From Octopus sinensis (Eukaryota), in assembly GCF_006345805.1 (NCBI RefSeq), contig NC_043000.1:154628001-154692000 (forward strand): a DNA stretch of 64,000 nt, given 5' to 3'. Below are positions 186 through 47,880 of this stretch, piece after piece. Made by a program: the position numbers and the translations under genes. The notes beneath the pieces are model-generated. The model was not told where the DNA came from. It saw only the letters and a program-made list of their open reading frames with translations, and searched no databases. The first letter of the stretch is position 1. Each line of letters opens with the position of its first letter.

Positions 186-506
186 TGTGTCTAGGGAGAG
201 TCATTTTCTTTTTGTGCCTTATAATTTAACACACTCACTGGTAAAATTCCACATTATTTCTTATTTTTATTTTCCTAAAATTTTCGTTGCATCTTGCAAC
301 CTTTTCAAGAGTCAAAACTATTGAAAAAGTTTCAAGAAGCAACAAAAATTTTAGGAAAATAAAAATAAGAAATAAGTGGAAATTTTATGAGTGAGTGACT
401 TAAATTATAAGGCACAAAAAGAAAATGACTCTCCCCAGACACAACAGAATATATGCTTCAACACACGACTCACATAAAGAATCTTGCAAACCAAATCCCA
501 AAACGT
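186..506. mobile_element. (TA)n-flanked foldback cassette (~125-bp inverted arms), probable Penelope-like pLTR remnant
   Basis: 186-310 is the imperfect reverse complement of ~318-443 (e.g. gagagtcattttctttttgtgccttataatttaa / ttaaattataaggcacaaaaagaaaatgactctc). The right arm extends to ~506. (TA)n lies on both sides and a hammerhead-like motif lies near the centre. Confidence 0.7.
274..313 (-). ncRNA. minimal hammerhead ribozyme-like motif, U3-A8 core variant
   Basis: Minus strand reads TTGAAAA-G-GTTGC-AAGAT-GCAAC-GAA-AATT-T-TAG. The plus-strand arm (318-355) supplies CTA before TTGAAAA for a 3-bp stem I but has a mutated GAAA. Confidence 0.45.
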
Positions 507-730: not shown

Positions 731-823
731 AGGTAGACCCTGAAGAAATTGCACCGGTATTATAGTAGGGTTGCAATTGCAATGGTTACTAATCAATGCA
801 TAGAAACATGTGTAGGTCTATTT
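731..823 (+). ncRNA. type I hammerhead ribozyme with long stem II
   Basis: Stem I TAGACC (734-739) / GGTCTA (815-820); core CTGAAGA (740-746); extended stem II hairpin; GAAAC (803-807); stem III ACA/TGT; GUA cleavage triplet (812-814). The base of stem II is imperfect. Confidence 0.75.
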
Positions 824-1659
824 GAGGCTATATATATATATAAAGGAATTAAGGGTACTATACAACTTTGTAATAATTATAATAATAATAATTATATATA
901 TATATATATAATAATATATAGATATATTATTATATATATATATAGTATATATATATATATGTATGTATGTATAGATATGCATCATATATGCATACATATA
1001 ATGTATATACACACACGCACACATATATCTATGTACATATATGTATGTATATATATTTACCTGTATATATGTAAAAGAGGATCTCTACCAAATCAATGGT
1101 AGAAAATTTAGTAGTCATATTGTAATACTAAAATGTAATTTGTTTGCTGCTTACCCACTCTTTGATAATGCATGTCAACACCCGTGTTCCCTACCCCAAG
1201 ATATATTATCCAAAGTGTAGGTTATAAAGCATTATACAAGTGTTAATTATATTGGATATTTCAAAGGGTGAAAGAATGAAACCAAACAATGTTTTCACAA
1301 ATGATGCAATCTCTTAATGTCTCTTAAAAATGGCATATCAACGTTGGAAGGAAAACAACACGCTTGGCAAATAACTATTATTGTTGCTTACCAAAGGGGA
1401 AAGCATTCCCCAAACAATATATGAAGAGCCTTAGTGGTATAACTGCAAGACAATACCCACAACCAGGAACAGTAGCAACAGCAACAGTATCTATTATGAT
1501 AATGATGAGGTGTGTAACAAAAATGGTAGCTACTATCATCAATAATAACCACAGATTGCTATATATGTGTGTGGTAGTTGACTATAGAAAAAAATCATAG
1601 TATGTCGGGGGCTGACCTTAATCTAAGTTTTTGATACCAACCCACCTGAAATGTAGAGA

Positions 1660-11603: not shown

Positions 11604-13944
11604 GAAATAGATCATAAGCCAATAGATGTGTGCATACTATTGTCATATTAGGTTGTCAGATAAACCCATTAATTCTTTTTTTCATTTATTTTGATCCTTT
11701 CCATTGTTATTTGAATTAACATGAAAAATATTTTCGTCATTATGTTTTGCAGGTTTTTTGTTTTTTGTAGATCTATTCTTTCCCTACAACTTTTGTTTAT
11801 CATTTTTGAAATTAAAATAAATTTTGCCTCTTTTCCAATGGAGTGCCAAGTAGAAAAAAAAATTCCAAAAGATAATTGAATTTATCTGACAACTTAATAT
11901 AAAAACTCTGTGTCTGTGTGTGTTGGGTGTATACATGTCTAATTTCATTTTGATATATGTAAAGATCATATATGTTTATAATTATACACGTATAAACATA
12001 TTTTAGGGTTGTTCATTTGGATGCTGTAAGTATAGTTCAATGCTTATAAGCATATGCCACCGAATATGTTTACATAGCAATACCAATGAAAATGGTATGG
12101 AAAGGGTTCAGAGGAGGCAGAGAGTTCAATTTCTACCCATAATGGGCAATGTTGCATAATCTTTCTATTATCTGGTTTTCAGCTCTAATTATTGGTTCTT
12201 TTATTTCTAAACATATGGCATAATTCTTGGATCTATAACTCAATATAATGTTGATCCTGGGTGCTAGCAAATTTTTACTTTTTCTATAGTGATTAACAAG
12301 ATGATGGATGTAGTATGAAAGTCTTTAGGTACTTTCTAGAAGTCTATAGAAGAATTACATCATATTAGAAGTTAAAACACTTGCTAATTGCATGCAACAC
12401 CTGGTTTATAGTTTTAGTGAGTGGCATCTATATATGCCATTTATTTAACATTAAATAGAATAAACCATGATCACAGTCTAGTGCCAGTGGTAAGACATAT
12501 CATCACTTCACTGGCCAGTTGTTCCTTGCTTGTTCCCTTTCTGTTTTGACTCTGTTAGGATTAAGATGCTAGAGTAAAGGAAAAGTATTGTTCTTCTGAG
12601 ATTGAAAAAGTTAAAAATAGCAAGTAAAATGAAAAATTAAATTAATTAGAAATAAAAGGAAAAGCTGAGCCTATACCATACTACTTTTTTCAGACATTTC
12701 TGATGATTGCTGGAGTTGGTTCTCAACCTCTGGTGTGAAACCAATTGGTAATCTGGCTATTATGGGACTACAATACTGTATTTTATTATTACTATTACTA
12801 TTATTATTAATAATATATTTATATATATGTATAATACACATAAACACATGTAAATACAATATATATTATAAATATATTATAAATTGTAGGTGTGGTTAAA
12901 TACTTATAAGGTTATTGTATTTATAATCAACTCATGATTTCATATTTCATATCCCCCTCCCACCAAATATCAGCAATCATCAGATGGCAATGGAAATGAA
13001 ATCTAAGCACTGCTGGTGAAGGCAAAAGTTTTTTTTTTAATATTTTTCAGTCAGTGCTAACATCTGTTATTGCTGCATATTCCTTCTGCAGTATAAAACT
13101 GTGAGTCATAGACAGAGTCAACCAGGAAGCCTATAGTTTAATATACACATATATATTACACACATTATTTTCTGTTGTGTGTTGCAAAGACGATGTCCTA
13201 CAGGTGGTTGTAACTAAATTTGTCTAGCTTGAGACATTTTCATCTTGTACTTTGGTCAGTTCTGACTGTATTCCCAGTGTGGGAATGTGATAGCGCTTCC
13301 CAGACATTCATTAATTTCCTATGTTCTTTGAAATTAACCAACAAGTAACTATTCAATCAACCAACTAACCAGTTGACCAGCCATCAAAAGTTCTATTTAT
13401 CGATTGTCGTACAGAGTCATTGATATTTTCTGCAGGGTTGCTATGGTGTTCAGTTAGGTGGTTGCACTTTGTAATCAATGAAAAGCCAGTGTGAAGAAGA
13501 CAAATAAATAGAAAATAAAATATGGAATCACGTGACATATTTCTTTGAGTTGACAAAATTGAACAAAAAAATTAAAATCTGTCTAAAACAAAACAAAATA
13601 TATAAAAGAAATCTGTTTCTCTGAAATCAATTATTTCTAACCTTCATCCTAACTTTAGTACAAGGCTACAGATTTTAGGAAAGAGATAACTCAGTTCAAT
13701 AGATCTCTAGTACTTTACAGTTACTGCTTTTTTGTTTTTAGCACTATCAAAATTGTTAGAGCATTGGATAAAAATGCTATATAGCATTTGTCCTTCACAA
13801 TTTTCATTTTGTAAATTTGACTCATAAGATATTGGCTAACCTGGATTTATAGTAGAAGACATGTACCCAAGGTGCTACACAACAGTATTGAACTTGGAAC
13901 CATAGAACAAACTTCTTATTTGCACAGCTATACCTGCACCTACT

Positions 13945-33554: not shown

Positions 33555-33758
33555 CTATAGGCACAATACCTAAAATTTGGGGAAGTGGGGATAATCAGTT
33601 GCGCTCCAGTGCTCAGGTGGTCACTTATTTTGTTGACCCTGAAAGAATGAAAGGCAAAGTTGACCTTGGCAGAATTTGAACTCAGAACGTAAAGACGGAT
33701 GAAATGATGCAAAGCTTTTTTGCCTGGCATGCCAATGATTCTGGCAGATTGCTGCCTT
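33555..33758 (-). mobile_element. older family A-related SINE
   Basis: Contains gaatgaaaggcaaagttgaccttggcagaatttgaactcagaacg. Same subfamily as 56538-56743. Confidence 0.8.
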
Positions 33759-33813
33759 AATAATAATAATAATAATAATAATGATAATAGTAATAATAAT
33801 AATAATAATAATA

Positions 33814-33844
<31 letters not shown>

Positions 33845-33908
33845 TGATTATAATAATAATGATAATAACAATAATGATTATAATAATAATGGTAATAATA
33901 ATAATAAT

Positions 33909-34380
33909 GGCATCATCGAAAATGCTAATGCAAAGATCCTGTGGGATTTTAGGATTCAGTGTGACCATGAGATAGAGAATAGGAAGCCAGACATAGTCTT
34001 AATTGAGAAAGAAAACAAACTATGTTGGATCATAGATATAGCATGCCCAGTTGACAACAAGGTATATGATAAGGAAGAAAGAAAAGTCGATAGATATGAC
34101 AAGTTAGCTTGGGAGGTTAAGCAGTTGTTGTCGATGGAAAAGGTGGTAGTAGTACCAATAACTGTCTGAGCCCTGGGAACAGTGAGTAAAAATCTTGAGA
34201 TGTACATGGAACAAACAAGGGCTGCAATAAAGGTGGAGCACTTGCAGAAAGCAGCACTGCTTGGAACAGCTCGAATACTCTGGAAGGTGCTCGAAAAATA
34301 AGGGGTGTTACCTTAGTTCACTGGTAGTGAACAGCTGACACTGTAGTACATCTCTAGCTTTAGAAGCTGTGCAAAGGCAA
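33909..34380 (+). pseudogene. 5'-truncated R4/Dong-like LINE: restriction-like endonuclease domain plus 3' UTR
   Basis: One frame reads GIIENANAKILWDFRIQCDHEIENRKPDIV...IIDIACP...KEERKVDRYDKL...VVPITV*ALG...LQKAALLGTARILWKVLEK* (stop 34299-34301). A single internal stop falls in the GALG motif. (TAA)n on both sides. Confidence 0.92.
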
Positions 34381-37223: not shown

Positions 37224-37939
37224 ACACCACACCAGAGGTGAAAACACCTCTGAAAGTGGGGGCCCCGCCACATCAAAACGGTAGAGGAGTAGGGGCCGAA
37301 ATCGGATGTAGTTCCTCCTGATGATTTCTTGAGCTAACTGGATCCTATAAAAGAGCTGTTGTGGTAGTGGACCACGGTTGAAATTCCTGTATATATATGT
37401 TTGTATATGCATACATACATACATTCATACATACATGTTCATACATACACACACATAAATATATCATAATATAAAGTGCAGATATGGCTGCATGATTAAG
37501 AAGTTTACTTCCCAACCATATACTTATTTTCGAAATGTTGAAGGAGTTGATCTAACTCTGAGGTCAGAATACTTTTTCAAAAATGTAGTTACATATGGAT
37601 CAAAGATGGTGATGTGCAGACCAAGGAGACTGAGCTTCTGAGCAGCTTCAACAAGGACTTTGGTCTTCTGGACATCCACTGTGAAGATGATGTGCACTGA
37701 AGAAATTGTTGACTGATTTCCGGAGTTCTGATGACAAAGATCAGCATTGTCACATTGTCATCTGTATTCTGAAGCATTGAAGCTCTGAGATGTGCTGGAT
37801 GCTGTTAAATTGATGAGATTGAAGAATGGCCATTTGAAGTAGCTTATATATATATAAATATATATATATAAATATTGATAAAAACGGTAAGACAACAAAA
37901 GAAAGAAAGAGACCTCGATATTATGTAAAGAGAGGAATT

Positions 37940-38192
37940 TATCTGTAAATGTAATATGTAACAATTATTTGGTAGCCATGATAAAACTCCGAGTTCCGGA
38001 TGATGAGGTGGAAATCCACTCCACCATCACTCCACCATCTCTCCAGTTATCCAGCCATCAGTCATTTTCCATTGCATTTTTCCGATGGCCAGATAACTGA
38101 AGAGATGGTGGCATGGATTTCCACCTCGGCATCCGAAACTCGGAGTTTTATCATGGCTACTGAATAATTGTCACATATTACATTTACAGATA
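37940..38192. mobile_element. (TA)n-embedded foldback cassette with ~115-bp arms
   Basis: tatctgtaaatgtaatatg...gccatc is mirrored by gatggc...catattacatttacagata. The left side extends to ~37870. Confidence 0.85.
38086..38159 (+). ncRNA. type I hammerhead ribozyme
   Basis: Stem I GCCA-GATAA / TTATC-A-TGGC; core CTGAAGA (38097-38103); stem II GATG..CATC with GTGG/CCAC and one extra C; GAAAC (38135-38139); stem III ACTC-G-GAGT; GUU triplet ending at 38147. Confidence 0.7.
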
Positions 38193-38697
38193 TATATACA
38201 TATATATATATATATACATGCATACATATATATTTTCATATATTGATATATATATGTGTGTGTGTGTGTCTACACATCATCATCATCATCATCATCATCA
38301 TCGTTTAACGTCTGCCTGTGTTTGCATGAATGATTTCATGTTACCCTTGCTGGCTTTTTTAAAAAAATGGTTTTCTGACAGTGCCATTTGCTTGCAGTCC
38401 ACCACGAAAGTATTTCCAGGCTTCTTGACATGTCTTGACATGTTGCACGACATTTGTAAATGAGCAGCTCATTCAACTAGTGTCATTTGTTTCCAGTTCT
38501 CTGCATAAAACATGTCTGGATTGTTTATTGTTTGATGACAGACTGGGAAATCATTACCTTGCTTAGAAACCAGTGGGTTTGATCTCAGGAAGGGCAATCA
38601 GCTGGAAAAAAATATACTCCCATCTGACCGATGGAAGCATGGTAAAGTATTTGTTATAACGATGACAATATCTCTCTATCTATCTATCTATCTATCC

Positions 38698-45574: not shown

Positions 45575-45603
<29 letters not shown>

Positions 45604-45852
45604 GTATATATACCAAATATATACGTTATATTTATTATTTGCACATTACTTAATCATCGTTATATGTTTTATCTTATACTAAATCTCTCTATAATGTGTA
45701 ATTTATCTAAATGGTATAATTTAATTTTTCATTATTGAATTGATGAAAGGTGTTTTTTTTTCTAATTTATATATATATATTATATTTTGTGAAATTTGAT
45801 TTAGTTTTCTAAATTGAATTTTTCCCTGTAAGTCTGGAATAATATTCCCTCA

Positions 45853-45894
<42 letters not shown>

Positions 45895-46700
45895 TACGCA
45901 GGGAAAGAGAGAGAGAGAGAGTGAGAGAGAAAGAGAGAGAAATGTACCAACACTTGATCGGTACTAATTTTCCTCAATAGATTCAAGCTACTCAAAATGT
46001 AGCAGTAACTTGAAAATGAGCATGAATTAGTCTCTTGTACCATACTTCTGCTACTTTTTTAGGTGTCTTTGTAGTTATGAGCAGACCTTCTTGGACTTGC
46101 CATCCTTAAGCCAGCAGAACAGTGAAGATATGAGAATTGGAGGGCTTGCCCCACCACTTGTCTTGTAATCATTTTTAGCTAAGTAGATTAACATGAAATG
46201 ATGTGCCTTGCTTAAGAACACTAAATATAACATACATCTATATATATATCACAGTATTAACCAGATTATAGGATGTTATGGTACATTGCTGGTCACAATG
46301 CGCTTTCCATTGTCTTAGCTTCACAATAATGCTGTCACGCTGGCTAGGCAAGCAGGCCACTGTACTTCCAATCAGTTGACTATACAGCTGAGTGGACTGG
46401 AAATGAAGTGTTTTGCTCGTCTAGTAATTGGACCCATGGTTGTGAGTGCAACACCCTAACCATTAGGCCATACACTTCATATATGTATATATATATACAC
46501 ACATAGACGTATATATATATTCACCTCCAACAATAGAGAGCAGCTGCCTTATTCCTTTCTATATTGGCTAACTCTGATGAGCATAAGGTTATATAATCAA
46601 ATTGTTACCTAACACTCCATGTATTCCTACCATGAAACCAGTTGGTAAGATCAATTGTGATGGATATATACTGTACATTTTGGATAATAAATAAATATAT

Positions 46701-46753
<53 letters not shown>

Positions 46754-47001
46754 GTATATATACCAATATATACGTTATATTTATTATTTGCACATTACTT
46801 AATCATCGTTATATGTTTTATCTTATACTAAATCTCTCTATAATGTGTAATTTATCTAAATGGTATAATTTAATTTTTCATTATTGAATTGATGAAAGGT
46901 GTTTTTTTTTCTAATTTATATATATATATTATATTTTGTGAAATTTGATTTAGTTTTCTAAATTGAATTTTTCCCTGTAAGTCTGGAATAATATTCCCTC
47001 A

Positions 47002-47053
<52 letters not shown>

Positions 47054-47880
47054 GCAGGGAAGAGAGAGAGAGAGAGAGTGAGAGAGAAGAGAGAGAAATG
47101 TACCAACACTTGATCGGTACTAATTTTCCTCAATAGATTCAAGCTACTCAAAATGTAGCAGTAACTTGAAAATGAGCATGAATTAGTCTCTTGTACCATA
47201 CTTCTGCTACTTTTTTAGGTGTCTTTGTAGTTATGAGCAGACCTTCTTGGACTTGCCATCCTTAAGCCAGCAGAACAGTGAAGATATGAGAATTGGAGGG
47301 CTTGCCCCACCACTTGTCTTGTAATCATTTTTAGCTAAGTAGATTAACATGAAATGATGTGCCTTGCTTAAGAACACTAAATATAACATACATCTATATA
47401 TATATCACAGTATTAACCAGATTATAGGATGTTATGGTACATTGCTGGTCACAATGCGCTTTCCATTGTCTTAGCTTCACAATAATGCTGTCACGCTGGC
47501 TAGGCAAGCAGGCCACTGTACTTCCAATCAGTTGACTATACAGCTGAGTGGACTGGAAATGAAGTGTTTTGCTCGTCTAGTAATTGGACCCATGGTTGTG
47601 AGTGCAACACCCTAACCATTAGGCCATACACTTCATATATGTATATATATATACACACATAGACGTATATATATATATTCACCTCCAACAATAGAGAGCA
47701 GCTGCCTTATTCCTTTCTATATTGGCTAACTCTGATGAGCATAAGGTTATATAATCAAATTGTTACCTAACACTCCATCGTATTCCTACCATGAAACCAG
47801 TTGGTAAGATCAATTGTGATGGATATATACTGTACATTTTGGATAATAAATAAATATATATATATATATATATATATATT
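45575..47880. repeat. near-identical ~1.16-kb direct tandem duplication bounded by (TA)n
   Basis: 45575-46740 vs 46741-47880. The differences I can see are microsatellite length changes and 1-bp indels. Confidence 0.95.
46563..46655 (+). ncRNA. decayed long-stem-II hammerhead-like motif (second copy 47721-47814)
   Basis: CTGATGA (46574-46580)...GAAA-CCA-GT-TGGT-A, with stem III ACCA/TGGT and a GUA triplet. Stems I and II are weak. Confidence 0.45.

Follow-up and report, generated by a model that had tools for sequence, protein, structure and literature searches.

Penelope-like elements (PLEs) of the Hydra clade, for example Hydra-1_Obim (Craig et al. 2021, PMC8557442), are described as carrying an endonuclease of the GIY-YIG type at the C-terminus, a CxCX5C linker, CxxC and CxH motifs around a conserved E and N, an RWK motif near the N-terminus and no CCHH motif, as inserting at (TA)n targets and as bearing a hammerhead ribozyme near the 3′ end. 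The ribozymes combine a stem III of 3–4 bp around a centre of 1–3 nt with a GUA, GUU or GUC triplet and, frequently, a mismatch at the base of stem II. The octopus element described here shares these features (RWK in one decayed copy) and differs in the length of stem II, which is 56–57 nt against 12–26 nt between A9 and G12, by our own count, in the 25 Hydra families that the paper's supplement lists. It differs also in the mismatch, which is of purines (A·A, A·G) and not U·U; 15 of the 25 listed families have a pyrimidine mismatch at this place. The published octopus Hydra family, Hydra-1_oBim, has another ribozyme sequence and a 23-nt arm (PMC8557442), and the copy studied here therefore belongs to a different family.

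The minimal type I hammerheads known from PLEs in metazoans (Cervera and de la Pena 2014, PMC4209133) likewise have a stem I of 4–5 bp, an enlarged stem II and a palindromic stem III, and occur mostly as single motifs from truncated elements, with activity predicted for dimers. Their helix II is given as 6–8 bp with a highly conserved G10.1-C11.1 pair, whereas the arm here is about 20 bp in three segments and does not have G10.1-C11.1. According to the same work and a review, metazoan PLE hammerheads cleave poorly and as dimers. For one PLE hammerhead, protein is reported to be needed for cleavage, cleavage to be dispensable for insertion in vitro and uncut RNA to be the main template (PMC11167929). 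The axolotl hammerhead HHR_Amex2 of non-LTR retrozymes (PMC7229834) shares the type I form and the mismatched stem II base, U·U in that case, and is described as cleaving (22% in 1 h as a monomer and much more as a dimer); it sits in non-coding tandem repeats of about 350 bp and yields circular RNA, whereas the copies here are dispersed and linked to an ORF for reverse transcriptase (RT) and endonuclease. Long spacing has precedents in other PLE clades, where, in the parts of PMC8557442 that list them, it is not analysed as a conserved multi-segment arm: PLE-X1_sMoe has a 54-nt stem-loop II, alike in length and listed as deviating from the canonical structure, and the core halves lie 35–50 nt apart in eight Naiads labelled ‘HHR_half_core’, one of them from octopus. 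PLE hammerheads, solo truncated copies, TA targeting, basal mismatches and long-spacing precedents are thus already in print, and the present locus is ordinary in that truncated single copies are the commonest form of PLE hammerheads.

The window analysed is a 64,000-nt stretch of the Octopus sinensis genome, which is 2.72 Gb in size, AT-rich and dense in microsatellites. Positions 735–883 very probably represent the tail of a 5′-truncated Hydra-clade Penelope-like retrotransposon with a type I hammerhead, in a copy predicted to be misfolded and likely not to cut. The features, all on the + strand, are as follows.

735..883, + strand: very probably the 5′-truncated 3′ end (pLTR remnant) of a Hydra-clade Penelope-like retrotransposon, from the family match at −5 to +143 relative to C740
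730..734, + strand: flanking DNA outside the element, a chance extension of stem I against 820–824 (sisters differ; pairs predicted)
735..739, + strand: stem I, 5′ strand, inherited 5-bp part, partner 815–819 (family comparison, folding)
740..746, + strand: catalytic core C3–A9 (CUGAAGA), intact (sequence; 20 of 30 subfamily-A copies)
747..802, + strand: stem II arm, 56 nt (57 in the family), with an A·A base, a basal helix, a middle helix 763–768/786–791 and an apical hairpin 770–783 (family comparison, folding)
803..805, + strand: core G12 A13 A14, intact in the assembly (sequence)
806..813, + strand: stem III, an 8-nt self-complementary stretch, 3 bp around a 2-nt centre (family comparison, folding)
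812..814, + strand: GUA triplet, with a predicted cut between 814 and 815 (sequence; H17)
815..819, + strand: stem I, 3′ strand (family comparison, folding)
820..883, + strand: element tail 3′ of the ribozyme, with an internal TA run (829–842) and an AT-rich junction with the flanking microsatellite (common to sisters)

An initial annotation had placed CTGAAGA, GAA(A), the GUA triplet (812–814) and a stem I of 731–739/815–823 at this locus, and all are found there (740–746, 803–805 and A806, for the core parts); its description of a type I hammerhead with an unusually long stem II in TA-rich surroundings was confirmed by the sequence and by family comparison. The hammerhead elements CUGANGA, GAA, A15.1-U16.1 and H17 are all present (740–746, 803–806, 813 and 814) and conserved across sisters, CUGAAGA being identical in 20 of the 30 subfamily-A copies and H17 being A in all 30, and the motif is, as judged from sequence, a type I hammerhead. 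A loose hammerhead core pattern matched the window five times against 0.22 expected. The folding proposed as a check gave a z-score of −2.76 for the motif region, which was more stable than 199 of 200 shuffled sequences, the remaining one being equally stable. The Rfam hammerhead models gave no match to the window at the gathering score or at E ≤ 10, where only microsatellite-driven miRNA noise appeared; this miss is likely an effect of the long arm. In the assembled contigs of four sequencing runs, a kind of data that does not reveal RNA ends, no position stood out as the start or stop of many molecules; one low-depth contig of run X1 carries differing letters at 801 and 803, possibly by error.

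Stem I pairs with probabilities of 0.92–1.0 in the window copy. The nine base pairs first proposed are real as complementarity, of which five are inherited; 731–734 is flank, family homology beginning only at 735. Positions 730–734 probably belong to a degenerate TAGA-type microsatellite flank, and their derivation from an inverted copy of the element tail was rejected, since about five changes in 7 nt would be needed. Beyond 4–5 bp stem I differs between subfamilies, and inspection showed no conserved contact between loops I and II. In the majority sequences of families A, B and F, stem I, which is open-ended, and the basal part of stem II fold with probabilities of 0.5–1.0.

The extent of the element follows from its sisters. 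A genome search returned 347 candidates, of which 40 were scored (84–95% identity, self match excluded) and 30 loci taken; in blastn, window 735–877 matched five long sisters at 84–86%, and in run X5 20 contigs leave the window sequence before 735 and enter the upstream sequence of the family. In sisters the homology runs for up to 756 nt on the upstream side and for about 365 nt on the downstream side. The solo island of about 105 bp, consisting of little but the ribozyme, that had been proposed gives way to a 149-nt remnant ending at about 883, with the TA run at 829–842 lying inside the element. Among 31 copies the 5′ ends are spread from +6 to −756 relative to C740, 15 copies extending to the ORF and nine beginning within 50 nt of the core, and the 3′ ends cluster at three TA-rich sites (13, 15 and 3 copies). 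TA-rich repeats flank the window copy, and among the 31 copies not every flank is TA. A second family copy was found neither in the rest of the window nor in the 30 kb upstream, which rules out a partner copy near the locus. A contig of run X6, which bears a second organism code, spans the same junction (723–838) with five differing letters, so that the insertion is not brand new.

In sisters, the region upstream of the ribozyme codes for an endonuclease of the GIY-YIG type (PF01541, E 3.9e-5; 24.3 bits, cut-off 22.6); six of the seven family ORF fragments gave no Pfam match above the cut-off. CxCX5C precedes the endonuclease and CxxC..E..N..CxH follows it, as read in L061, L062, L065, L068, L069, L075 and L077, and inspection found no CCHH. 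Family loci align across both RT and endonuclease (L193, E 1e-46; L201, E 5e-45) to an intact 717-aa ORF in a relative, L183, which carries RWK and DKT. With Pfam, two long ORFs of relatives gave nothing above the cut-off, and no RT family was detected even in L183. The order RT, endonuclease, ribozyme is seen in L194, L195, L199 and L061. In L201 a family ribozyme is followed by an ORF start with MRWK, a pseudo-LTR layout in which RWK rests on this one decayed copy; the position at which the Hydra clade has DKG changed to DKT reads DKM in the same copy, the only one of the family to cover it. L199 has an inverted ribozyme copy upstream and a direct copy downstream, and L004 has an inverted tail. 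Among the loci examined there was no intact full-length member of the window copy's family. In a protein atlas the matches were unnamed clusters at 0.96 and, as a lead only, a cluster with 31% GIY-YIG at 0.95. By these sequence features the parent appears to be a Hydra-clade Penelope-like element; the tree built covers endonucleases from within this genome.

Several further loci were recorded. A decayed Hydra-type PLE of another family (L203:1221–2615, tblastn E 7e-50) lies about 17–19 kb upstream of the window start. A young family (L182, L184, L185, L187 and L190) has near-identical PLE ORFs of up to 688 aa with RWR and DKT, and a relaxed scan of up to 900 nt downstream of the ORF (short in L184) found no hammerhead. 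At L010, L035, L048, L060, L146, L159 and L199, ribozymes of the family under study occur in pairs that face opposite ways, with a few hundred to 2000 nt between them, the typical layout of inverted 5′-truncated PLEs.

Stem II was compared in 63 of 75 rows from subfamilies A–D, 12 partial or misaligned rows having been dropped, together with 34 rows of family E and 33 of family F, both of which were reached through more distant endonuclease matches (46–55% identical to the query fragment). The insert between the core halves measures 56 nt in the window copy (747–802) and in the D majority, and 57 nt in the A, B, E and F majorities. The families align across stem II almost without gaps (111 of 130 rows aligned), while the adjacent flanks are 14–45% identical between families and the ribozyme follows the stop codon at about 180, 380 or 450 nt, depending on the family. 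The long stem II is thus an inherited family trait and not a peculiarity of the window copy. The within-genome endonuclease tree sets the three long-arm families apart from L183, which has a 31-nt arm, with moderate support (87/92).

The structure of the arm is best seen in its basal helix, in which 82.9% of the alignment cells are paired and six of the 11 pairs show double changes. Between B and E, seven of the 22 positions differ and all 11 pairs are kept (simulated P 0.0006–0.014), the compensatory swaps including C-G to G-C and U-A to C-G; the comparison of B with F is uninformative (P 0.28–0.67). Sister copies had been suggested as a check of covariation; they were found, and changes in the basal helix are compensatory, but two of five measures in the alignment test fell under the shuffles and the covariation score was nearly equal for a slide of +3 (0.167 against 0.168), so that the covariation rests on few between-family events. 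RNAalifold run on the 111-row alignment A1 predicted no consensus structure and no pairs, which we read as reflecting decayed copies and family-specific arm middles. Between families the arm middle shares 31–56% identity, and in E it adopts a different fold. Most individual copies are decayed; among the 30 of subfamily A, four combine an undamaged core with a probability above 0.5 for the basal helix.

Family E (L079:4740–4865, L102–L131) departs further: its core is UUGAUGA in 25 of 34 copies, to be taken either as U3 with G8 or as an extra nucleotide after C3, and its stem I is shifted, while the arm stays at 57 nt.

Within the window copy, the complementarities first proposed for stem II are partly there, TGCA 750–753/797–800 and TAGTAG 763–768/TTACTA 786–791 being present without forming the predicted fold: the TGCA pairs have probabilities below 0.01, and the middle and apical helices about 0.14. 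The TTGCA/TGCAA helix would enclose a loop of 2 nt and has to be replaced by a workable apical helix at 770–774/779–783.

The base of stem II had been singled out as the reason why this copy may be impaired. The usual R10.1-Y11.1 pair, which is common and not obligatory, is indeed absent from the window copy, A·A standing in its place. At this base subfamily A has A·A in 20 of 30 copies, B has A-U in 21 of 24 and D has G·U in seven of nine, while family E has A·A in 28 of 34 and family F has A·G in 31 of 33; private damage was rejected as the source of A·A. Since the mismatch is inherited in the families and has published precedents, the absence of an R-Y pair does not reflect damage in this copy, and the non-Watson-Crick base is the inherited state. 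That the copy is impaired is nonetheless probably right, for another reason. Inside the ribozyme it differs from its subfamily majority at three places, two C-to-T changes (749 and 783) and a 1-nt deletion after 800. The predicted probability of the basal helix is 0.94 in the majority sequence, 0.01 with the deletion alone and 0.008 with all three changes. The window copy is thus predicted to misfold, chiefly through the deletion after 800, and is likely inactive in cleavage.

Stem III (806–813), absent from the initial annotation, bears on how the ribozyme may work. Its self-duplex is predicted at −6.0 kcal/mol, against +2.4 kcal/mol for the monomer hairpin, and because 3 bp around a 2-nt centre cannot be closed within one strand, cleavage likely needs a dimer. 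The two central nucleotides are UG or UA in A and UG in B, while E has UA in 31 of 34 copies and F has CG in 15 of 33, and each of these agrees with a dimer; CG, UG and UA are also the expected products of CpG decay, which weakens this signal. The double-hammerhead form of the A, B and F majorities lies 0–3 kcal/mol from the cofold minimum, and that of the window copy 5 kcal/mol above the minimum.

From the known biochemistry of PLEs, the copies may be taken to arise by target-primed insertion: in an active parent, TA-rich DNA would be nicked by the GIY-YIG endonuclease, and the RT would begin to copy the RNA at a point downstream of the ribozyme; at the window locus, copying likely broke off after some 150 nt. 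The ribozyme of the family, whose core is intact and whose 57-nt stem II stacks on a non-Watson-Crick base, would likely cut after GUA only as a dimer, in which a second RNA would complete the 8-nt self-complementary stem III, or with help from the element protein. Among 50 loci chosen by the endonuclease, not all of them independent, 42 hold the ribozyme region; 38 of these pass the cut site by alignment and L035 does so by eye, three stop short of it, and the cut site is the end point of none. As the copies examined run through the cut site, they were made from uncut RNA, and the absence of ends at the cut site in the 42 loci fits the uncut-template result of PMC11167929.

Other readings of the locus were weighed against a decayed copy of a Hydra-clade element. 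The nine sisters that start close to the core, together with a 2026 preprint that, in the part consulted, derives animal retrozymes from PLEs, would suit a short non-autonomous element, SINE-like or retrozyme-like, with little beyond the ribozyme and mobilised in trans. We consider this very unlikely, for the 5′ ends share no common position, 15 of the 31 copies reach the endonuclease ORF, and no head-to-tail array was found at the locus, where the copy is single in the window and the 30 kb upstream. Non-LTR retrozymes, built of head-to-tail non-coding repeats of about 300 bp with a single hammerhead in each unit, likewise differ from this single copy and from its sisters, which are joined to a coding ORF. 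Less credible still is an active monomeric ribozyme retained by the host and stabilised by an extended stem I of 9–10 bp, a reading that we hold to be extremely unlikely. The intact core, GUA site and stem III, the predicted stem I (p > 0.9) and the X6 contig over the same junction would agree with it, but the basal helix of stem II is predicted at p < 0.01 in this copy, a monomer cannot close stem III, the private changes resemble ordinary decay, and PMC4209133 describes single metazoan PLE hammerheads that do not cleave.

It is also conceivable, if quite unlikely, that in this lineage the motif never cut and survives as a vestige, with the long arm as tolerated filler. An A·A or A·G base in three groups, the U3 or extra nucleotide in the core of 25 of 34 family-E copies, the divergent and differently folded arm middle, and the finding that cleavage is dispensable for insertion of another PLE in vitro (PMC11167929) all point that way. 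What speaks against it is that the core, the 57-nt arm, the basal helix, a stem III that is palindromic and a permitted H17 (A or U) have been kept across families, and that this conservation persists despite the divergence of the adjacent flanks and of the stop-to-ribozyme distances. We accordingly retain the reading of a truncated Hydra-clade tail whose family carries a conserved long-arm hammerhead.

A bolder suggestion, which we put forward tentatively and think rather unlikely to be correct, is that selection maintains the 57-nt stem II as a functional module in this PLE lineage and that it is not filler, since three families whose neighbouring sequences can no longer be aligned share one fixed arm length. 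Stem II carries four to five UGCA palindromes, which allow alternative or intermolecular pairing. The arm could serve as a docking site for the RT-endonuclease of the element, or as a switch that keeps the ribozyme off until the protein binds or two RNAs pair. If true, this would be a natural allosteric hammerhead and a direct handle on what PLE hammerheads do. The three fixed-arm families and their natural base variants (A·A, A-U, G·U and A·G) make up a ready series for studying dimer and protein-assisted cleavage.

We found no description of a fixed 57-nt arm in Hydra-clade elements in the literature, of which the Craig supplement was covered in part and the work on dimeric PLE hammerheads through a review. 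The description of the Hydra clade used a core-spacing filter of 7–17 nt (PMC8557442), and as the arm lies outside this filter and has no Rfam match, long-arm ribozymes are likely undercounted. The window holds further hammerhead-like motifs. Window 37845–38195 contains a hammerhead with a 31-nt stem II at 38097–38139, preceded by an inverted 5′-truncated copy, and matches the 3′ end of the intact Hydra-type ORF locus L183 at 80–86%. Another hammerhead-like core, whose stem II is 30 nt long and whose palindromic stem III has 10 nt, lies at 12700–12751. Two more cores (46574–46638 and 47732–47797), with spacings of 53–54 nt and weakly paired inserts, lie within a tandem duplication, near-exact and of about 1.16 kb (about 45580–47860), which is either real or an assembly artefact. 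Dimeric PLE hammerheads have reportedly been treated by Lunse et al., whose supplements may list long-arm variants.

Apart from these motifs, window 186–443 is an inverted repeat with 127-nt arms that are 89% complementary and 4 nt apart, set between TA runs; it is foldback or MITE-like and possibly represents head-to-head retroelement ends. Finally, an ORF at 33708–34169 (+), between (TAA)n arrays and with no Pfam match, looks like the end of an R4/Dong-type non-LTR element that carries the restriction-like endonuclease.
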